From: Aquificaceae bacterium
GTDB lineage: Bacteria > Aquificota > Aquificia > Aquificales > Aquificaceae
Direction of reading: 5' to 3'
DNA length: 64,000 nucleotides
Assembly: GCA_037925075.1 (NCBI GenBank)
Contig: JAXSNR010000001.1
Location: forward strand, 214,085 to 278,084
Part shown: piece after piece, positions 29,505-39,011 of the stretch
How the letters are laid out: each line of letters opens with the position of its first letter
Position numbering within the stretch: position 1 is the stretch's first letter
Notes under the pieces: generated by a model
Databases searched by the model: none
Told to the model about the DNA's origin: nothing
The model's input: the letters and a program-made list of their open reading frames with translations, nothing else
Made by a program: the position numbers and the translations under genes

Positions 29505-30241
29505 CCTTTAGGGAAGGTGATTATGTTCTGCTGGTCTGTGAGGAGAAAAGATACCTTAGGACACTCACAAGGAATTTTAGCCTAAGCTACAAGGAAAGGG
29601 TGGTAAAGTTTGAAGATCTTGTTGGCAAAAGCCCCGGGCAGGTGGTTAAAGGGTTTTATGTGCTCACTCCCACCCTTGAGGACATAATCTTGCTTGGCTT
29701 TCAAAGAAAAACTCAGATAGTGTACCCCAAGGACAGCTTTTACATAGCCTTTAAGCTTGGGCTTTCAAAGGATAAAAGGCTTCTTGAGTTTGGTGTGGGA
29801 AGCGGTGCATCCACCGCGGTCTTTTCTCAGCTGGCGGGCGAGGTCTGGGCTTTTGAGGTAAGGGAAGACTTTTACAAGCTTGCAAAGAAAAACTGGGAGA
29901 AGTTTGGGCTATGTGAGAAGGTGAGGCTTGAAAACCTTGACTTTATGCATGCGGAGTTGGAAGAGAATTTCTTTGATGCGGTCTTTGTGGATGTAAAGGA
30001 GCCTACCCTTTACATACAAAAGGTATGGAGGGTCCTAAAGCCCGGTGCAACCTTTGCGACCCTTTTACCCACCACCAATCAGGTAAGTAGTCTTCTGAAG
30101 TCCATGGAGAGCTTGTTCTGCCATACGGAAGTGCTTGAGATACTCCACAGACCCTATAAGTCAAACCCAGAAAGGCTAAGGCCTCAAGACACCATGACCG
30201 CCCACACGGGCTACTTGCTCTTTGCAAGAAAGAGAATATAG
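29501..30241 (+). CDS. trmI: tRNA (adenine-N1)-methyltransferase TrmI
   Basis: TQIVYPKD, EFGVGSG, VFVDVKEP, LRPQDTMTAHTGYL. Confidence 0.9.
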   Translation: MTFREGDYVLLVCEEKRYLRTLTRNFSLSYKERVVKFEDLVGKSPGQVVKGFYVLTPTLEDIILLGFQRKTQIVYPKDSFYIAFKLGLSKDKRLLEFGVGSGASTAVFSQLAGEVWAFEVREDFYKLAKKNWEKFGLCEKVRLENLDFMHAELEENFFDAVFVDVKEPTLYIQKVWRVLKPGATFATLLPTTNQVSSLLKSMESLFCHTEVLEILHRPYKSNPERLRPQDTMTAHTGYLLFARKRI

Positions 30242-30810
30242 CCCCTTATGTCCGCCAGTTCTATACGGCAGTGGTCATAGCCTTCAAGGGGCTCAGCACC
30301 CCTGATTACCATTATGTACCTCTTGGAAAGCCTCTCAAGTAAGGGCAATATCTTCTCCGTCTTTCCAAGGGCCCTACAGACCACAAGGTCAAAGCTCTCT
30401 TGCAGTTTCTGAGCCTCTTTGCAGAAAACCCTGTACTCAAGACCGAGCCTACTTTTGAGATACTCCAAAAAGGAGCATTTCTTTGCCACGGCCTCCACAA
30501 GGGTTAGGCTTATCCTGTCTCCGTAGTATATCTTCAAAGGGACTCCCGGAAAGCCCGCACCACTCCCCACATCACACACGGAAAGACCATCCACCTTTAT
30601 ACCCTTCTCCTCAAGACACAGACTAAGGGTCAGCGAGTCTAGAAAATGCCTCAAGACCACCTGCACATCATCCCTTATGGCGGTAAGGTTGTGCACCTTG
30701 TTCCATCTTTTCAACTCTTCAAGATAAACTGCAAAGCTCTCCAGTTGCCTTTGAGAAAGCTCAAAACCATTTCTGAGAAAAACCTGCCTTATAAGCTCCT
30801 GAGTAGGAAT
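30211..30810 (-). CDS. rsmG: 16S rRNA m7G methyltransferase RsmG (GidB); probable ATT start at 30810, first canonical start TTG 30714
   Basis: WNKVHNLTA, HFLDSL, DVGSGAGFPG, CRALG. The frame stays open 32 codons upstream of TTG 30714, to an ATT lying 6 nt after GGAGGA. Confidence 0.88.
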   Translation of the reverse strand: MPTQELIRQVFLRNGFELSQRQLESFAVYLEELKRWNKVHNLTAIRDDVQVVLRHFLDSLTLSLCLEEKGIKVDGLSVCDVGSGAGFPGVPLKIYYGDRISLTLVEAVAKKCSFLEYLKSRLGLEYRVFCKEAQKLQESFDLVVCRALGKTEKILPLLERLSKRYIMVIRGAEPLEGYDHCRIELADIRGYILFLAKSK

Positions 30811-31376
30811 TTTATGTCCTCCGCCATCTTTGCAGGGTCTTGTTTTGCGGGCGTGTAAAGCAGTTTAATCTTCATGTCGGGTGTAATCAAGTATATGGTT
30901 GCTGTGTGGTCCACAAGGTATCCACCGGCGGACTGCCCTTCCACCCTTTTGTAATAGGCTTTGTACTCCCTTGCGGTTTTTCTTATCTCTTCTTCAGACC
31001 CTATAAGCCCAATAAAGGTAGGGTTAAAGTAGGGAACATAGCCCTTGAGTACCTCTGGCGTGTCCCGTTCGGGGTCTACGCTTATAAAAAGCACCTGAAC
31101 TCTCTTTGCCTCCTCTGGCGTAAGGCTTTTTACCACCTTTGCCATGGTTTCAAGTGCCATGGGGCAAACATCTGGGCAGTGGGTATATCCAAAGAAGAGT
31201 AGCACCACCTTTTTTTGGCTTGCAAAATCGGAAAGTTTTACCCTTTTTCCCTCGTAGTCTGTAAGCTCAAAGTTGTAGGCGGGTTGGTCATACAGATGTC
31301 CGTAAAACTCGTGCTGTCTTTTGCAAGAAACAACAAACAGAAGCAGAAAAACCATAAAAGTTGTTAATTTTCTCAT
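30789..31376 (-). CDS. SCO1/SenC copper chaperone lipoprotein
   Basis: Lipobox-like VVSC, FFGYTHCPDVCP, FISVDPERD, VDHTA. Confidence 0.92.
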   Translation of the reverse strand: MRKLTTFMVFLLLFVVSCKRQHEFYGHLYDQPAYNFELTDYEGKRVKLSDFASQKKVVLLFFGYTHCPDVCPMALETMAKVVKSLTPEEAKRVQVLFISVDPERDTPEVLKGYVPYFNPTFIGLIGSEEEIRKTAREYKAYYKRVEGQSAGGYLVDHTATIYLITPDMKIKLLYTPAKQDPAKMAEDIKFLLRSL

Positions 31377-32686
31377 AATTTAAAATTATAGCACAGGCTT
31401 ACCCTTGTGCCAAGACCTTTTTTGCTTTCTACCTTCATACTCATACCGCTTCTCTGAGCGATAAGTTTAACTATGGAAAGCCCAAGACCCGTGCCTTCCC
31501 TGTCCGTTGCCTCCCTGTAGAAAAGCTCTCCCACCCTTTCTGGATGCTCCATACCAATACCCCTGTCCTCAACAACCACACAACCCTCCCTAAAATAGAG
31601 CATTATCTCCTGACCCTCCTCTGTGTACTTGTATGCGTTTTCTATTAAGTTTCTAAGAGCCATCTTGAAGTACTCCTTATCCACATGTAGCACCACATCT
31701 TCTTCAAGGTACTCTATGATAAATTTTCTGCTTCCTCTGATAAATTCGTACTCCTCCTCAAGCTCAGCAAAAAGTTGGTTTAGGCTCACCTCCTCCACCT
31801 TGAGAGGGACCTGAGATTCAAGCCTCAGGATGGTGGTGAGCTGGGTTATGAGCCTTCCCATCTTCTCAGATTGGAGCTGTATGGTGCGGTACACTTCTTT
31901 TAGCTCCTCCTCTGTGTACTTGCCCCTTTGCAAGAGCTCCGCCTGCCCCTTTATGTAGGTCAAGGGAGTTTTCAAAGCATGGGCAACGTTCCTTATAAAC
32001 TCCCTCTGCCAAAGGATTATACTTTTGAGCCTTTCCACCATGCTGGCATAGGCTTCCTCCAAAAGACCAAACTCATCCTTCCTGCCACTTTTCTTTATCT
32101 CGACCTCCAGCTCCCCCCTTGATAGGCGCCTTGAGACCTCCGTAAGATAGGCCAAGGGCTTTAAGAGTAGATTTATAAAGTAAAAGGCTAAAAGGGAAGC
32201 GGGCAAGGAAATCAAAAGTAGAAGCAGAGCCGTAAATAAGATTATCTGCCTTTCTACCTCTCTTATGCTGTCCAATTTTCCAAGAAGTATAAGGTGGTAA
32301 TCCCCTACCTTTTTTACCATAAAGGCGTAATCCTTACCTATCCCTTTTTTGGACCTTATGATGTCTTGTATATCCTTGGGCTCTACCTTTGGCATTTCAC
32401 CCTCAAGGAAGCTTTCTCTCTTTACCACCCTACCCTTCTCATCCAAAAGAATACTGGCTATCTCCCTTGATACCACATCCTCCGCCAGTAGCTTTGCGTA
32501 ATAGTTGGGGTTTTTGTAGTAGTTTCTGTAAAAATCCAAAAGAGGATTGACCTGGTACTCCATGTAGTGGAGTATGTACTTGTGGAGGGTTGACCTAACA
32601 AGCATCAGGCTAAAAAAGGACAGCAAAGCTACGCTTCCCAAGTAGAGACTGAAAAAAAGTAGTAGAGCCTTAAACCTTACCGACAT
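31373..32686 (-). CDS. HAMP-HisKA sensor histidine kinase (H-box AHALKTP)
   Basis: Two TMs, HAMP, N box NLIENAYKY, G1 EDRGIG, G2 GTGLGL. Confidence 0.9.
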   Translation of the reverse strand: MSVRFKALLLFFSLYLGSVALLSFFSLMLVRSTLHKYILHYMEYQVNPLLDFYRNYYKNPNYYAKLLAEDVVSREIASILLDEKGRVVKRESFLEGEMPKVEPKDIQDIIRSKKGIGKDYAFMVKKVGDYHLILLGKLDSIREVERQIILFTALLLLLISLPASLLAFYFINLLLKPLAYLTEVSRRLSRGELEVEIKKSGRKDEFGLLEEAYASMVERLKSIILWQREFIRNVAHALKTPLTYIKGQAELLQRGKYTEEELKEVYRTIQLQSEKMGRLITQLTTILRLESQVPLKVEEVSLNQLFAELEEEYEFIRGSRKFIIEYLEEDVVLHVDKEYFKMALRNLIENAYKYTEEGQEIMLYFREGCVVVEDRGIGMEHPERVGELFYREATDREGTGLGLSIVKLIAQRSGMSMKVESKKGLGTRVSLCYNFKL

Positions 32687-33350
32687 CCTCTACAGATAGC
32701 ATGTAGCCGTAGCCTCTTACCGTTTTTATAAGCTTGTGTTCTTTGTCTCCCAGCTTGTTTCTTAGGTTTTTTATGTACACATCCACCACGTTTGAAGCTT
32801 CTCCATAAGAGTATCCCCAGACCTTTGAGTATATCTCTTCTCTGCTTACAGCACTGTTTGCCCTTTCTGCCAGAAGCTTTAGGAGTTTAAACTCCCTCTG
32901 TGTAGTAGGTATTTTCTTTCCCCTGTAGTACACTTCAAAGGATTTTAACCTAAGCTCCAGATCATCTATCTTTAAAGTGTCCGGTCCTTCCCTCCTGTAC
33001 CTTCTTAGGACCGCATTTATTCTTGCAAGAAGTTCCCTAAAGGAAAAGGGCTTTGTTATGTAGTCATCCGCTCCCGCGGATAGCCCTTCTACCTTGTCCT
33101 CAATCTGACCTTTTGCGGTAAGCATCAATATGGGGATATCTTTTACCTCCCTTATCTTCTTACACACCTTAATACCATCCATCTTGGGAAGCATAATATC
33201 AAGAAGCACAAGGTCGTAGTCCTCTTCCAGTATGCGATTTACCGCAGAATAACCATCTGTTAGCCAATCCACCTGAAACCCCTCTTGGGTTAATCCATCC
33301 AAGAGCATTCTACCAAGATGCTGGTCATCCTCCACAAGCAAAACCCTCAT
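32670..33350 (-). CDS. OmpR-family response regulator
   Basis: VEDD, LDIMLP, LTAK, GADDYITKPF, winged helix VDVYIKNLR.K...TVRGYGY. Confidence 0.95.
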   Translation of the reverse strand: MRVLLVEDDQHLGRMLLDGLTQEGFQVDWLTDGYSAVNRILEEDYDLVLLDIMLPKMDGIKVCKKIREVKDIPILMLTAKGQIEDKVEGLSAGADDYITKPFSFRELLARINAVLRRYRREGPDTLKIDDLELRLKSFEVYYRGKKIPTTQREFKLLKLLAERANSAVSREEIYSKVWGYSYGEASNVVDVYIKNLRNKLGDKEHKLIKTVRGYGYMLSVEDVGKV

Positions 33351-34750
33351 ACTTCAGGAAGCACCAGATACTCTTCTATTTTAAGGATTTTTAATATATC
33401 CCTGTATGGCTGTAAAGCTATTTCTAACTCCCTTTCCAACTTCTCAGTGCCGAGCACGTTGTAGCTAAGGTCAAGAAGGAACTGAAGAAAGGCAAACACT
33501 CCTTCCTCACCTCTGGGCATCCTTCTGTAAATTATGACTCCTTCCTGATATTTCAAAATGTCTGAAGATGCAAGCTGTGCCAATATTATGTGGTTTAAAT
33601 GTCCCGCATGCTTAAGGAGCATACTATAAATAAGGTTGATTAGAAATTGATGTACCACATCTTTTATGTTTTCCATTGACTGATATAGAACAATGTCTAC
33701 CCATGATATTTTTTCCACTGGCAGGCTTTTGACCAATTTGAAGCCCTCTTTATCCTCCTGCACCATACCAAGAAGCAGTCCCTCCTTGTGTATTATGTAA
33801 GTTTTTGAGCCCTCCGAGTATATGGTTATCATACCCGTCTTCCCCTCCATACCCATACCTATGAGTATCTTCCCCACCTCTAAGAAGGACCCGGGTAATC
33901 CACTCACTACCTTCTCTTCAGAATGCTTCAGCATAAGCAGGTCAATGGCGCTTCCGCCTATTCCTATTACATTTAACAGGGAATTCTTTTTGGGCGTAAG
34001 AAAAAAGTCAAAGACTTCCAGGCTATAGGGATATATTGCGGATAGCTTACCCTTTTTGTAGTACAGTTCAAATTCAAAATCTCCTCCCATTATCTGAATA
34101 ATGCCATTAAACTTACTAAAGTGAAAGCTTTCTAACAAGGTTATAGGGTTCACTCTATCAATTTCAACACCCTTCATAAGGTATTCTACCCTTATCTCTT
34201 CTCTCAGGAGTTCGGGATTATAAAACTGATTTATGTCTAAATAGCCACCAGAAAAGAGAGATTTTAGCTTTCTTATTTCTTCAACAAGACTGTTCTTTGA
34301 GTTAACTAGTATATGATATACGCTTTTACCATCGTAAAAATCCGCTTCTTCAAAAATTTTTGTAGCTTTAACCACTGCCATGGGAGTTATAACCCTTTCC
34401 ATGAGGGATTTCAGTTCACTATGAACTAACTGAAGCTGAAGCACAAGCTCTTCTACCGATACGGGATCCTCGAGCTCAAAGATTTCTTCCCTTTTGCCGT
34501 CTCTAAAGGTGAAAAAGGCTTTTGGACTTTCCATGAGTTCAGAAAGGTGGTAAAGGAGCATAGACCTCTTGTTTTCAGCATTTACCTCATCACTATCACT
34601 GAGTCTAAAACCCTTTATAAGCCCTCTGTCCGTATACAGGGATACTACCTTTACGCCAAGAAATAGGTCAAGGGTACCCTCCCTGTTGAAAAGGCACCCG
34701 TTGAGAAGGTCTACTAAATCCTGCTTTGAGCTTAAGTATCCAGAGATCAT
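33347..34750 (-). CDS. Hypothetical protein with up to three DUF4388/PatA-N-like units
   Basis: Recurring G-x-(I/L)-strand-strand-G pattern: REGTLDLFLG..VSLYTDRGLI, FNGIIQIMG..FELYYKKGKL, KTGMITIYSE..TYIIHKEGLL. Pattern seen by eye only. Confidence 0.5.
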   Translation of the reverse strand: MISGYLSSKQDLVDLLNGCLFNREGTLDLFLGVKVVSLYTDRGLIKGFRLSDSDEVNAENKRSMLLYHLSELMESPKAFFTFRDGKREEIFELEDPVSVEELVLQLQLVHSELKSLMERVITPMAVVKATKIFEEADFYDGKSVYHILVNSKNSLVEEIRKLKSLFSGGYLDINQFYNPELLREEIRVEYLMKGVEIDRVNPITLLESFHFSKFNGIIQIMGGDFEFELYYKKGKLSAIYPYSLEVFDFFLTPKKNSLLNVIGIGGSAIDLLMLKHSEEKVVSGLPGSFLEVGKILIGMGMEGKTGMITIYSEGSKTYIIHKEGLLLGMVQEDKEGFKLVKSLPVEKISWVDIVLYQSMENIKDVVHQFLINLIYSMLLKHAGHLNHIILAQLASSDILKYQEGVIIYRRMPRGEEGVFAFLQFLLDLSYNVLGTEKLERELEIALQPYRDILKILKIEEYLVLPEV

Positions 34751-35319
34751 AGTAGCATCCTTTCCACCCTTGATACAAGATAGTTCTCAAGAACCTTAAA
34801 AGTTTCCAGCACCCCTTCACCTTTTATGGCACTGGCACACACATAAGGGTGGTTTTCAAGGTTTATTACCTTTTCCATCTCCCTGTAATCCATGGCATTG
34901 GGTAGGTCAAGCTTGTTATACTGGAGCACCACGGGAACGCTTGAGGGATCCTTGCCGATGCGAAGCAAGTCCGCTTTCAGAAGGCTGTAGAAGTTTATGT
35001 TTTCATTTAACCTTTCCTCTTGGGAGTCCACAACGAAAATCACTCCATCCACACCCCTCAAAACTGTGAGCCTTATATCCTTGTATATGTCCTGACCGGG
35101 CACCGTGTATAGGGCAAAGGAAAGGGTAAGGTCTCCTACCTTTACCTTTTTTGTGGCAAAGTCAAAGACAAGGGTTTTCTCTTCTTGGGTGTCTATCTTC
35201 ATTATACTGAGACCTTCCATTTCCGCCAGTTTTTCAAGGTTTGTGGTCTTACCAGATTGGGCTATACCATAATAGACTACCTTAAGCCTTATGAGCCTTT
35301 TTTCAAGATCTACCAGCAT
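34747..35319 (-). CDS. mglA: MglA-like small Ras-family GTPase
   Basis: KVVYYGIAQSGKTTNL, KTLVFDF, LYTVPGQ, LRGVDGVIFVVDS, QYNKLDLP, SAIKGEGV. Confidence 0.85.
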   Translation of the reverse strand: MLVDLEKRLIRLKVVYYGIAQSGKTTNLEKLAEMEGLSIMKIDTQEEKTLVFDFATKKVKVGDLTLSFALYTVPGQDIYKDIRLTVLRGVDGVIFVVDSQEERLNENINFYSLLKADLLRIGKDPSSVPVVLQYNKLDLPNAMDYREMEKVINLENHPYVCASAIKGEGVLETFKVLENYLVSRVERMLL

Positions 35320-36442
35320 TTAAGTCCCTCCTAAGCCTTATTTCTCCCCACCTTACGCACTCTATGCACAAGGGCCTGTAGATATTATAAGCTTTTCCGC
35401 AGAAACATACAAAGGGCTTAAGAGATTCTCCCACCGCTAACATACAGTACCTATCTTGCTCCCTGTGGGACTGGGAGCTGTAAAGAAGGGCTCTAAAGGT
35501 AGTTGTTAGCCTTTCTTCCAAGCTCTTTGCCTTACTTAGCAGGTTGAGGCGAAGGTATACCATACAAAGAAGGTTGGGGTCTATGGACCCTGATTTTGCT
35601 TCTATGACATCAAGCAGTTTTGTAAGCCCCTTTTCATCTTCAAGTAGGTTCCAAAGCACTTCTTCCTGGTATCCCAAGGAAATAGCCTTTTCCCAAACTT
35701 TTTTGGCATCTTTTAACTTGTCTTGAGAAAGAAGGTGCTTTATGTAAGCCGAGTAAACAAAGGGTGATGGGTTTAGGTCAAAGGCTTTTTCTATAAGATC
35801 TTCTTCCCCCTTCTTGAGATAGACCATAGCCATGATCTCTGCCTTAATGCTTTTCTGCTTTTCCTTTTCCCATTTCTCGCATATCTGTATCACCCTTTCT
35901 TGATACTCCAAAGCTTTTTCCCAGTCCTCTAAGAGGGCATAAGCATCCCTCAATCCTTTGATGGCTTTGAGGTTTTCTCCATCTTGTAATAGTGCCTGAT
36001 CGAACTTCTCCTTGGCTTCTTGCACCCTTTTCTCCCTCAGAAGGATTTCGCCTACGGTGGCTGAGGCTACGCCGTTAAAGTTCTTGAATTCCTCAAGCCT
36101 TCCCTGTGTGTAGATTAGCTCCGCCAGAAGGGACCTAACTGGCTCAAAAAATTTTCCCGCGGAGAGAAGTAGCCTTTCCGCTCTGTTAGGATAACCTCTT
36201 GAAAGCTCTCTTAGCCCCTCCTTTAGTGCACTAATTCGCCTCTTTAGTATGGCTTCTTTAAAGAGAAGGTATAAAGAGGGAAACAAAAAGCCAAGAGCAA
36301 AGCTAAAAAGTAGAAGCACAAACAGGGGTATGTTGTAGATTACGTGGAAAAATCGGACTTCCACATATGCAGCGTTCTGGGCTATAAAGAGAAGAAAGGC
36401 AGTGAGAAGAACTATAAAAATAAGGAGCTTTATTAAACTCAT
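35303..36442 (-). CDS. LapA-LapB-like fusion (LapA TM domain, TPRs, rubredoxin-like tail)
   Basis: FIAQN..V.VRFF...IPLFVLLLFSFALG, TPR helices, C-terminal CFC...CIECVRWGEI. Confidence 0.7.
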   Translation of the reverse strand: MSLIKLLIFIVLLTAFLLFIAQNAAYVEVRFFHVIYNIPLFVLLLFSFALGFLFPSLYLLFKEAILKRRISALKEGLRELSRGYPNRAERLLLSAGKFFEPVRSLLAELIYTQGRLEEFKNFNGVASATVGEILLREKRVQEAKEKFDQALLQDGENLKAIKGLRDAYALLEDWEKALEYQERVIQICEKWEKEKQKSIKAEIMAMVYLKKGEEDLIEKAFDLNPSPFVYSAYIKHLLSQDKLKDAKKVWEKAISLGYQEEVLWNLLEDEKGLTKLLDVIEAKSGSIDPNLLCMVYLRLNLLSKAKSLEERLTTTFRALLYSSQSHREQDRYCMLAVGESLKPFVCFCGKAYNIYRPLCIECVRWGEIRLRRDLNAGRS

Positions 36443-36780
36443 AAACTTACCCTCCCCGCATTAGAGTAGAGCCACTCAAGGTCATAGTACTCTCTCCATT
36501 CTTTCAAGAATATATGAACTATTATATCAATGAGGTCAATGAGTATCCAGTTTGCCTCTTCCGCCCCTTCCACATGGTCTGGTTTTAAACCCATTTTTTC
36601 CAGCTCTTCGGTAAGGTGTTTTAGAAGAGCCCTTGCATGCACCACAGAGTTGGCGGTGGCTATCACAAAATAGTCCGCTATGTTTGTTTGTTTTGAAACA
36701 TCCAAAACCACCACATCCTCCGCCTTTTTGTCCTCCAATAGATTCTTCAGCGTCCTCAAAAGCTCCCTATTGTCCCGCAT
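36439..36780 (-). CDS. rsfS: Ribosome silencing factor
   Basis: DKKAEDVVVLDV, DYFVIAT, WILID..DIIVHIF...REYYDLEWLY. Confidence 0.95.
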   Translation of the reverse strand: MRDNRELLRTLKNLLEDKKAEDVVVLDVSKQTNIADYFVIATANSVVHARALLKHLTEELEKMGLKPDHVEGAEEANWILIDLIDIIVHIFLKEWREYYDLEWLYSNAGRVSL

Positions 36781-37660
36781 ACCTTTTGAGTTCTTTATAA
36801 TAAGGGTTCTCTCCGTATACCTGTCTGTATGTTTCCATCTGCCTTAGCCCTTCCTGTCTGCTAACCTCCGCAAGGTTTTTCCACCTTTCTATCTCTCTGC
36901 TTAGGAATTCAATTCTGTTCTGGATGGTCCTTCTATCTTCTTCGGACCTGACAGACTTGAGCTCTTTTTCTGCAGATTCTATCCATCTTTTGTACTTGGA
37001 CTCTTGCCTTTTTGCCTGCTCTTTCACAAGAAGAAGAGATTTTATGTATCTGTATAAGACCTCCGCCTCTGAGACCTGCTCAGGGAAATTTATAAGAAGA
37101 TTTCTGTATCTGAGTGAGGCGGAGTAGTAGTACCCAAAGTCCTCATAGAACCTGCCTATTAGGTATTCGTGCTGTGCAATCTTTGACTGAGCGTTGTTTA
37201 TAAGCTCCATAACCCTATCACCATATGGACTGTTTGGATACCTGCTGAGGAATTCCTTTGCCTTGTCTATAGCCTTTAGGGTGTAGCTTTGGTCTCTGTA
37301 AGAGTCTGGTGCCACTCTCATATAACTGTCCACCACCATAAAGTAAACCTTCTCAGCTTCTGGGCTTTCTGGATAATAAAAAAGATAGTCCTCAAAGTAA
37401 ACTATGGCGTTTATATAATCCTTTCTCAGATAGTAGCTTTCACCAATGGTGTACTTAGCAGACTTTATCTGCTCCGGCGTGAGGTTTTCCAAGTACTTTA
37501 GAGCCTCCGAAAGCTTGCTTATGGCTTCCTTGTAGTCTTTTCTTGCATAGGCGGACATGCCTTGAGAGTAGCTTTCTGTAGCCAGCCTTGCCCTCTTTTC
37601 TTCTGTCATCTTGGCACAGCTCACTAAAAGTATGAGTAAAAGCGCTAAGAGTCTACGCAT
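36767..37660 (-). CDS. bamD: Outer membrane protein assembly factor BamD
   Basis: Lipobox LVSC, TPRs, RDQSYT.KA, IAQHEYLIGRFY. Confidence 0.88.
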   Translation of the reverse strand: MRRLLALLLILLVSCAKMTEEKRARLATESYSQGMSAYARKDYKEAISKLSEALKYLENLTPEQIKSAKYTIGESYYLRKDYINAIVYFEDYLFYYPESPEAEKVYFMVVDSYMRVAPDSYRDQSYTLKAIDKAKEFLSRYPNSPYGDRVMELINNAQSKIAQHEYLIGRFYEDFGYYYSASLRYRNLLINFPEQVSEAEVLYRYIKSLLLVKEQAKRQESKYKRWIESAEKELKSVRSEEDRRTIQNRIEFLSREIERWKNLAEVSRQEGLRQMETYRQVYGENPYYKELKRYAGQ

Positions 37661-39011
37661 GGCTCAGGTTGTAGCTATTTATACTGATCTCCTCACTGGA
37701 GCTCAACCGTATATTCAAAAATCCTCTTGCCTGCAGTTTCTTGCTTACGCTCTCGTATCTTAAAGGATGCACCTGTAGTTCAATGTTGTTTTGATGGTAT
37801 AGAAGGCTTTCCTTCTCAAGCTCAAACATAAAAAGGGGTAAGCTCTTTATAAAGCCTTTCCCAAAGCAAGTGGGGCATGCTTCTGATAGCATCTTGGTTA
37901 GGCTTTTGCCGGTCTTCTTCCTTGACATCTCCAAAATACCTAACTTGGTAAAGCCATAAACCGTAACACTACAAGCCCCCTCACCAAAGGCTGATAGCAT
38001 ACGGTCTATTACAAGGTTCCTGTTTTCCTGCTTTTTCATATCTATAAAGTCCACAAGAATTATACCACCTATGTCTCTTAGCATTATCTGCCTAACTATC
38101 TCCTTTACCGCCTCAAGGTTTGTTTTCAGTGCGTTCTCCTCATGGCATGAGCCTGAGGGGTCTCCGCTGTTTACATCTATTATGGTAAAGGCTTCCGTTT
38201 CCTCTATAACTATGTAGCCACCGCTTTTTAGCCATATTACCTTGTTGAATATTTCTCTAAGAGTGTCGTAAAGCCTGTATCTATATATGTAACTGGATGG
38301 GTCTTTAAGGTAAAGGTTCTTTCTAAGAAGCCCGGGTTCAAACTCCTCAAGGAAGGAAGCTATGTTGTTCCATACTATAGTGTTATCAGAAACCACTTCC
38401 TCTATTTCTTGCAAATAATCCCTTATGAGCCTTATGTAGCTTGGATATTCTTCAAGTATCATCTGGGGTTTTTTAAGGGCTTTTGCCCTTTTTTGAACCC
38501 ATTCCCACTGCTCCCTGAGCTTTCGAAGTTCATCCTTCACAGCCTCTGGGTCTACATTAACCGCAGAGCTTCTAACTATTACGCCCTCTTCCTTCAAATC
38601 TTCTCCTAAGAACTTGCATAATCTTTCCTTTTCTTCCGCATGCACCTTGCTGGAACACTTTATATCCTTTCCTCTGGGAAAGTACACGAGATATTTCCCC
38701 ACAAGCTTTATGTTTGTGGTGAGCTTTGCACCCTTTTCACCCTCTGGCTCTCTCAACACTTGCACTATCACACTGTCCCCTACCCTGTAGCTTTCACCCT
38801 TAAGGGGCAAAAAGGCATCCTTGCCAATGCCTATGTCCACAAACACGCCATCCATACCTTTTGCAAGTCTTTTGACCTTGCCCTTGAATATGCTATCTAA
38901 AAGCCTTTGTCCTCCTTTTGGTTCCACGCTTATCCTATAAGTGGTCTCGCCATCTATAAGAAAAGAAAGTATCAACTCCTCCGAGGACAGAACTATTAGC
39001 CTCTTTGCCAT
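37653..39011 (-). CDS. rng: Rne/Rng-family ribonuclease (RNase G-like)
   Basis: S1 domain FVDIG...AFL, LKSGGYIVIEETEAFTIIDVNSG, GGIILVDFIDM, CPTCFGKG. Confidence 0.9.
   Translation of the reverse strand: MAKRLIVLSSEELILSFLIDGETTYRISVEPKGGQRLLDSIFKGKVKRLAKGMDGVFVDIGIGKDAFLPLKGESYRVGDSVIVQVLREPEGEKGAKLTTNIKLVGKYLVYFPRGKDIKCSSKVHAEEKERLCKFLGEDLKEEGVIVRSSAVNVDPEAVKDELRKLREQWEWVQKRAKALKKPQMILEEYPSYIRLIRDYLQEIEEVVSDNTIVWNNIASFLEEFEPGLLRKNLYLKDPSSYIYRYRLYDTLREIFNKVIWLKSGGYIVIEETEAFTIIDVNSGDPSGSCHEENALKTNLEAVKEIVRQIMLRDIGGIILVDFIDMKKQENRNLVIDRMLSAFGEGACSVTVYGFTKLGILEMSRKKTGKSLTKMLSEACPTCFGKGFIKSLPLFMFELEKESLLYHQNNIELQVHPLRYESVSKKLQARGFLNIRLSSSEEISINSYNLSHA

Follow-up and report, generated by a model that had tools for sequence, protein, structure and literature searches.

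Here, we describe a two-gene GTPase unit in a 64-kb stretch of DNA (64,000 nucleotides (nt); hereafter, the window) from an Aquificaceae bacterium (GenBank assembly GCA_037925075.1, contig JAXSNR010000001.1; G000:C1:214085-278084 in our numbering of genomes and contigs). The unit consists of a gene for a 190-amino-acid (aa) small GTPase of the MglA family, which has no gene for the Roadblock protein MglB beside it, and a gene for a 467-aa protein that appears to be built of repeated PATAN (DUF4388) modules. On balance, the two genes probably form a single functional unit in which the 467-aa protein would serve as the dedicated effector or scaffold of an MglB-less MglA. This interpretation draws on gene order and gene overlaps, family memberships, the joint occurrence of the two genes across genomes, and the probable kinship between the 467-aa protein and the partner of a second MglA in the same genome. 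Orthologous pairs have been catalogued before, and the pair belongs, as a member not yet studied, to a known theme and is no new kind of system.

Conservation of the pair in Aquificaceae

We have read 42 loci to date: 13 of them, from 10 genera, came with flanks of 7 kb, and the other 29 were shorter. Together, they represent 11 of the 12 Aquificaceae genera (referred to below as g1 to g12). In all of these loci (13 of 13 long and 29 of 29 short ones), the genes for a 379-aa LapA/LapB-like protein, the MglA and the 467-aa protein were adjacent and in the same order. The synteny comparison that an initial annotation of this DNA had proposed thus upheld the association of the GTPase with the 467-aa protein in all 11 genera. 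The two genes overlap by 4 nt in the window, and outside it the ends of the MglA and 467-aa matches lie within a few tens of bases of each other. Adjacency of the triplet holds at partner identities of 24–49%, despite rearranged flanks. The conserved unit is this set of three genes, and within it the GTPase and 467-aa genes behave as an inseparable cassette.

No MglA homologue, 467-aa protein or PF14332 (DUF4388) match was found in genus g5, two complete genomes included. This genus retains the BamD-RsfS-LapA/LapB-like gene order, which is followed directly by a gene for an OmpR-type regulator with no GTPase pair in between. It should be noted that one genome of the window's own genus (96% complete) also lacked the pair, and its LapA/LapB-like gene was cut by a contig end. 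Because the two genes overlap, remain adjacent in 42 loci and are jointly absent from g5, it is very likely that the 467-aa protein is the dedicated partner of the window MglA.

The MglA GTPase

In comparisons with known structures, the window GTPase matched MglA over its whole length and far ahead of any Arf or Rab protein, with E values of 3e-35 for Myxococcus xanthus MglA (6hjh; approximately 40% identity over the aligned region) and 1e-31 for Thermus thermophilus MglA (3t12). Its P-loop (GIAQSGKT) agrees with GxxxxGK[ST] and its G4 motif (NKLD) with [NT]KxD. The G3 segment reads LYTVPGQD, in which TVPGQ is the hallmark of Group 1 MglA proteins, with threonine replacing the aspartate of Ras and the catalytic glutamine kept. 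We aligned 42 orthologues; T[VI]PGQ occurred in 40 of the 41 sequences covering the motif, and AVPGQ and TTPGQ were each seen once. At the arginine-finger site (Arg53 of M. xanthus MglA), the window GTPase has lysine (EEKTLVFDF) instead of the arginine expected of Group 1. Arginine occupies this site in g2, g3, g6, g7, g9, g10, g11, g12, most of g4 and part of g1, lysine predominates in the genus of the window and occurs in one g4 genome, and one orthologue has serine. Judged from this alignment, the lysine is a local variant at a variable basic position of the orthogroup and no trait of the family. The site equivalent to Ras G12 and MglA G21 is mostly alanine and at times glycine, threonine or proline. 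The G21V substitution in Thermus MglA lowers kcat 7-fold (PMC3000849), and a slow intrinsic GTPase activity is plausible for the proteins described here.

A maximum-likelihood tree was built from 35 GTPase sequences, with a single reference from outside the phylum. The clade of orphan, MglB-less MglA proteins was monophyletic (support 96/96), and its sister group consisted of M. xanthus MglA and the MglB-coupled MglA proteins of a sister family (99/90). Because the MglB-coupled MglA paralogue of Aquificaceae branches outside the group formed by the orphan proteins and M. xanthus MglA, on this tree the copy without MglB is the closer relative of classical MglA. A GTPase of Group 5 was placed far outside.

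In another genome of the window's genus (G067:C1:30880-32156), additional partial MglA-like matches (50% and 47% identity) lie between the full mglA gene and the 467-aa gene, which suggests a decaying tandem duplication.

Distribution and architecture of the 467-aa protein

The family of the 467-aa protein was represented by 33 clusters among 5.8 billion proteins and by 19 representatives in a second search of 1.8 billion proteins, all from Aquificaceae. Members were found in 74 of 89 Aquificaceae genomes and in none of the 88 genomes of the four other families of the phylum. The N-terminal MISGY and two arginines, R160 and R409, are invariant across the family.

A confident AlphaFold2 model based on an alignment with 25 orthologues (predicted local distance difference test (pLDDT) score 85, predicted template modelling (TM) score 0.71) shows a beta-alpha-beta-beta-beta module three times, at approximately residues 1-125, 186-282 and 283-360; the strand-helix-three-strand cores of these modules occupy approximately residues 1-50, 188-240 and 282-340. 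Long helices span residues 99-120, 362-394 and 416-456, and residues 360-467 form a C-terminal helical domain. For comparison, the N-terminal core of PATAN comprises a strand, a helix and three strands with a G-[ILV] and G-x-[ILV] signature; a helical insertion and another sheet segment come after it. Matches to DUF4388 were obtained for all 25 aligned orthologues at E<=1 (the best at 3.5e-10), always in the middle module, and many orthologues carry a precomputed PF14332 match. We further compared each module, by using hhalign, with a PATAN profile that was based on 30 canonical proteins of 230 aa from the same phylum. Module 2 gave a probability of 75% (E 2.5e-5). Module 1 matched in register along the core, helical insertion and FxF strand (E 0.002-0.005), module 3 likewise in register but along the core only (E 0.003), and two control regions, the linker and C-terminal domain, gave E values of 0.1-0.2. 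Modules 2 and 3 also resembled each other (67%). On the basis of these comparisons, the protein is predicted to consist of one recognisable and two degenerate PATAN modules together with helical domains, which bears out its initial description as multi-DUF4388-like.

Pfam scans of the cut-out modules gave no matches. Queries of the PDB by sequence and by profile (the 467-aa protein, the family profile and a canonical PATAN protein) returned nothing, and no PATAN structure was present there. Sliding clamps and PCNA were considered as fold relatives and rejected, as Foldseek against the PDB reached only TM scores of approximately 0.1 with probabilities of at most 0.23; we read the resemblance as a repeated beta-alpha-beta-beta-beta pattern in common, without homology.

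MglB, the second MglA and its partner

The initial annotation had stated that MglB is missing. This was true of the window, where the Roadblock/LC7 model PF03259 found no match, but not of the genome: a search of all 1.6 Mb revealed two clear Roadblock matches outside the window, the nearest of them approximately 356 kb away and coupled to an MglA paralogue. At that locus (C1:605288-606263), which holds a canonical mglB-mglA pair, a gene for a 165-aa Roadblock protein (MglB) overlaps the gene for a 189-aa MglA that is 42% identical to the window MglA and has the motifs QRT and TTPGQ. Downstream follow genes for a 373-aa protein (precomputed Pfam match PF26309) and a membrane protein of approximately 300 aa that contains a CxxCH motif and has a HAMP-like end. 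The order mglB-mglA-373-aa gene-membrane protein gene was kept in eight of the nine Aquificaceae loci read, and MglB was not found at the remaining one (L102, g10). In the window's genome, this set (G000:C1:605288-607400) is divergent from flhA.

The second match lies on another contig (G000:C2:330952-332483) and belongs to a triad of genes of the Group 5 type. The Roadblock protein of this triad scores 72.7 bits, its 230-aa PATAN protein is canonical (76 bits), and its 183-aa GTPase has GTPGQ and threonine at the arginine-finger site. Of 99 Aquificota genomes that are at least 95% complete, 83 contained an orthologue of this PATAN protein. Besides the two clear matches, tandem genes for 122- and 114-aa proteins with weak Roadblock-like matches (G000:C2:570695-572371) precede genes for SCP2-like and PAS-domain proteins, with no GTPase gene nearby.

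Some MglB-coupled MglA copies appeared damaged. One was split in an Aquifex-like genome (G001:C1:1282996-1283549) into a 141-aa part and a separate C-terminal match, and two contained an in-frame TGA (G074:C1:164769-165332 and G007:C110:7469-8026). These copies may be pseudogenes or sequencing errors.

Each of the two MglA paralogues is thus followed by its own partner gene. BLASTP between the 467-aa and 373-aa proteins was not significant. At the profile level, hhalign aligned the 373-aa family (69%, E 4e-5) with modules 2-3 of its 467-aa counterpart. A low-confidence model of the 373-aa protein (pLDDT 64) has three modules, each of a helix and three strands, and a C-terminus that is helical. 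A similar 410-aa protein is encoded behind mglB-mglA in a sister-family genome. A distant homology between the partners of both paralogues is therefore probable. A cryptic Roadblock domain was also considered for the two partners and rejected, as no similarity to Roadblock was found in either.

Gene organization in the window

Genes were labelled from open reading frame (ORF) calls and from Pfam and NCBIfam assignments. The MglA and 467-aa genes lie within the following minus-strand series (coordinates in window numbering, here and below):

37653-39011, minus strand: RNase E/G-like protein (ORF call, Pfam)
36767-37660, minus strand: BamD/YfiO (Pfam YfiO, E 1.5e-33)
36439-36780, minus strand: RsfS (Pfam RsfS, E 1.7e-32)
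35303-36442, minus strand: 379-aa protein with LapA_dom, tetratricopeptide repeats (TPR) and C-terminal Cys4 motif (Pfam)
34747-35319, minus strand: MglA-family small GTPase, 190 aa (Pfam Arf/Ras, PDB MglA matches)
33347-34750, minus strand: PATAN-like partner protein, 467 aa (sub-threshold DUF4388, profile comparison, AlphaFold2)
32670-33350, minus strand: OmpR-family response regulator with Response_reg and Trans_reg_C (Pfam)
31373-32686, minus strand: membrane sensor histidine kinase with two transmembrane (TM) helices, HAMP, HisKA and HATPase_c (Pfam, NCBIfam)
30789-31376, minus strand: SCO1 (ORF call, Pfam)
30211-30714, minus strand: RsmG (ORF call, Pfam)

The gene content and order given in the initial annotation were correct. 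Its unbroken chain of overlapping genes holds through SCO1, but not for rsmG, which lies behind the only gap in the series (74 nt, counted from a TTG start). According to the ORF calls, neighbouring ends of the nine genes before this gap share 4-17 nt; from BamD to SCO1 the overlaps are 14, 4, 17, 4, 4, 17 and 4 nt in order, so that the response regulator gene overlaps the 467-aa gene, and the kinase gene the SCO1 gene, by 4 nt each. Because the gene ends overlap, we infer that the GTPase and 467-aa genes are co-transcribed behind the LapA/LapB-like gene, in an RNase G-BamD-RsfS-LapA/LapB-like housekeeping operon for envelope and ribosome functions. The two genes are also probably translationally coupled. 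Pattern scans of the region for promoters and terminators remained at or below the expectation from shuffled sequence, and no Rfam family was matched there.

Upstream, RNase G-BamD-RsfS was found in all sampled genera except the Aquifex-like g2. Downstream, the response regulator and kinase genes follow the pair in five of 11 genera (g1, g4, g6, g10 and most of g9); unrelated genes take their place in g2, g3, g7, g11, g12 and Thermocrinis albus, and in Aquifex a gene for an MsbA-like ABC exporter lies directly behind the pair. The two-component genes had initially been counted as part of the GTPase module. Because they stand behind the pair in only five of 11 genera, and a regulator is present in g5 without the GTPase pair, they are probably operon neighbours and unlikely to be members of the GTPase unit. 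The best NCBIfam match of the response regulator is to a heavy-metal (CopR/CusR-type) subfamily, below the cut-off. For the regulator, kinase and SCO1, a role in copper handling or envelope stress seems more likely than a link to the GTPase.

In one g12 genome (G089, L047 2204-6238), pilB-, pilT- and pilC-like genes lie approximately 0.8 kb past the 467-aa gene on the opposite strand, with a methyltransferase-like gene between them. This proximity was seen in one genus and is probably a coincidence.

The LapA/LapB-like upstream protein

The 379-aa protein contains LapA_dom (PF06305), a two-helix membrane domain with two TM helices (36 bits against a 28-bit cut-off), TPR repeats detected by Pfam and a C-terminal CxC...CxxC motif resembling a zinc ribbon. 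C346, C348, G349, Y355, C359 and C362 are invariant in its orthologues. The orthologue profile matched LapB chains in the PDB (7wzb, 9up5, 8v24, 7t6d and 4zlh; E 3e-6 to 1e-4) over approximately 60 positions of the TPR region only, and designed TPR and pentatricopeptide repeat proteins outscored these chains by far (E 1e-38 down). In the Cys4 region, the profile matched only ribosomal protein L32 and zinc-finger chains in the PDB. NCBIfam models of LapB gave weak matches (E 1e-5), far under their cut-offs, in five of 12 orthologues, and PF18073, the Pfam model of the LapB zinc ribbon, did not detect the Cys4 motif. Therefore, the protein may be called LapA/LapB-like by architecture, which falls short of proof that it is LapB. 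The genome yielded no further candidate for LapB. The one strong genomic match of PF18073 (G000:C1:286796-286879, 56.8 bits), considered as a second LapB, proved to be the N-terminal zinc ribbon of RadA. PF18073 also matched in all 14 control genomes and is not specific for LapB.

Proposed role of the pair and alternative explanations

The initial annotation had suggested that the 467-aa protein is an effector, a GTPase-activating protein (GAP) or a scaffold. An effector or scaffold is favoured here because PATAN domains are protein-binding modules and PATAN genes recur near mglA and mglB (PMC4316618); a GAP is less likely, since the 373-aa homologue coexists with MglB and no Roadblock similarity was found. 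As to binding, the direction of signalling, its target and the source of GAP activity, we propose the following. The 467-aa protein would bind the window MglA and read its nucleotide state. Its repeated modules would recruit or position other proteins, as cyanobacterial PATAN does with a pilus motor ATPase (in Synechocystis, PATAN domains bind PilB1; bioRxiv 10.1101/2021.06.11.447907). Hydrolysis of GTP may be intrinsic and slow, or stimulated in trans, for example by the MglB of the second locus. The OmpR-family regulator, kinase and SCO1 would be operon neighbours with a function of their own, possibly related to metals or the envelope.

Several observations weigh against this proposal. The DUF4388 score of the window 467-aa protein itself (20.7 bits) is below the 25-bit cut-off, and the similarity of modules 1 and 3 to PATAN is weak (hhalign probability 10-15%). 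The homology between the 373-aa and 467-aa families is drawn from one profile-profile match of 69% and the model of pLDDT 64. With regard to a pilus target, the window's genome has four T2SSE-type ATPases; g5 keeps T2SSE/pilus ATPases without any MglA, so that such a target is unsupported by co-loss, and a paired loss of MglA/PATAN and pilus-type ATPases in g5 was ruled out. Finally, the constant adjacency of the LapA/LapB-like and MglA genes, together with the MsbA-like exporter in Aquifex, could mean that the target lies in envelope assembly.

Among the alternatives, it is unlikely, though worth some weight, that the 467-aa protein replaces MglB as the GAP, or the guanine nucleotide exchange factor (GEF), of the orphan MglA by supplying or positioning catalytic residues. 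Such a replacement would explain both the absence of an adjacent Roadblock gene and the drift from arginine to lysine, and it is in line with the lack of a local MglB, the occurrence of arginine, lysine and serine at the finger site within one orthogroup, the predominant alanine at the G12/G21-equivalent site (compare the slower Thermus G21V variant) and the invariant R160 and R409 of the 467-aa family. However, the distant homologue of the 467-aa protein, the 373-aa protein, follows a paralogue that already has MglB; if the two families are homologous, their shared role would therefore not be that of a GAP. In addition, the 467-aa protein has no similarity to Roadblock, the intrinsic arginine is retained in most genera, and we know of no PATAN protein that acts as a GAP or GEF.

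Just as unlikely is a wider module in which the GTPase, the 467-aa protein, the two-component pair and the LapB-like and BamD genes form one circuit linking the GTPase to envelope biogenesis. The unbroken chain of overlapping genes is consistent with it, as are the intact LapA/LapB-like-MglA-467-aa order between two rearranged flanks, the regulator and kinase that come next in g1, g4, g6, g10 and most of g9, and the MsbA-like exporter that comes next in Aquifex. On the other hand, the two-component genes are not behind the pair in g2, g3, g7, g11, g12 and T. albus, and the g5 arrangement, with the LapA/LapB-like gene and regulator but without the GTPase pair, shows that the sets are separable. 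Moreover, BamD, RsfS and RNase G are housekeeping proteins whose clustering often reflects mere co-expression, and our literature search found no link between MglA GTPases and LapB.

A narrower version, to which we give slightly less credence, is that the pair regulates, in space or in time, the assembly of the outer membrane and lipopolysaccharide and not pili. If this is true, a PATAN scaffold with three arms would read the GTPase, and the pair would target the LapA/LapB-like protein (and thereby control of the FtsH/LpxC type), BamD or the MsbA-like exporter; this would explain why the LapB-like gene is fixed directly upstream of the pair despite rearranged flanks.

Least probable of all is that the GTPase and the 467-aa protein, though encoded on one transcript, have unrelated functions, with a PATAN resemblance too weak to count: the sub-cut-off Pfam score of the window protein, the marginal modules 1 and 3 and the fold search of the PDB without a meaningful match agree with this, but strict adjacency in 11 genera at 24-49% partner identity amid rearranged flanks, joint loss, DUF4388 matches in 25 of 25 orthologues and an MglA-PATAN association that recurs across phyla argue against it.

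Relation to known systems

MglA is the best-studied bacterial Ras-like switch and is mostly known from Myxococcus; its partners there are MglB, RomR/RomX and TPR effectors. An association between PATAN and MglB was reportedly noticed in 2006. The module had been regarded as undescribed in the initial annotation; however, a 190-aa Aquifex aeolicus protein was listed by Fremgen et al. in 2010 among MglA homologues without an adjacent mglB (PMC3000849), and the orthologous pairs of aq_1560 and HTH_1432 were catalogued as "MglA>PATAN>" in Table S2 of Wuichet and Søgaard-Andersen, 2014 (PMC4316618). The same table gives Thal_1033 as "MglA>", HTH_1830 as "<MglA<MglB" and aq_1844 as a Group 5 MglA-PATAN-MglB triad (PMC4316618). 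Thal_1034, which adjoins Thal_1033, is among the matches of the 467-aa family.

The Group 1 "MglA>PATAN>" pairs of Aquificae in that survey agree with the window pair in orthogroup and order, with a 190-aa MglA followed by a PATAN protein and no adjacent MglB. The survey was, however, without the three-module architecture, the limit to Aquificaceae, the LapB-like upstream gene and the kinship of the partners. What is added here to the catalogue is this architecture, the narrow range, the triplet of LapB-like, MglA and partner genes, the separable two-component pair, the probable kinship of the partners and the local lysine.

The MglA/MglB systems of M. xanthus and T. thermophilus contain the closest relatives of the GTPase, which share TVPGQ and NKxD with it, and in the tree the orphan clade is sister to M. 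xanthus MglA. In contrast, the window locus has no adjacent MglB, lysine for Arg53, alanine at G21 and a partner with PATAN repeats, and no RomR/RomX, SgmX or Frz was seen around it. SofG of M. xanthus and the MglA of Bdellovibrio bacteriovorus are likewise MglA-family switches without a cognate adjacent MglB (PMC4316618); these act with bactofilins or with RomR and TPR proteins, no PATAN-repeat partner having been described for them, whereas the window MglA belongs to a lineage of thermophilic chemolithoautotrophs. The cyanobacterial PATAN-REC (PatA-type) regulators PixG, PixE and LsiR, which bind PilB1, likewise contain PATAN (DUF4388), a module that mediates protein-protein interactions and is tied to spatial control. 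Unlike them, the 467-aa protein has no receiver domain, appears to carry three tandem and mostly degenerate modules and is paired with a GTPase instead of a Che-like pathway. Finally, Group 5 Roadblock-PATAN-GTPase triads (aq_1844) and the actinobacterial conservons CvnA-D also encode a small GTPase with an adaptor, but their GTPases have GTPGQ and no arginine, and always occur with a Roadblock protein as partner and with just one canonical PATAN or DUF742 protein.

As a genome feature, the pair holds limited surprise, being conserved and already catalogued, and its family is that of the hot-spring Aquificaceae. Nevertheless, the constant LapB-like neighbour offers a handle on whether a small GTPase touches envelope biogenesis, and the MglA and its partner, thermostable and compact, are suited to structural work. 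Above all, Aquificaceae possess two Group 1 MglA paralogues, each with its own PATAN-repeat protein and one of them with MglB, and thus provide a natural comparison for the role of PATAN at small GTPases.

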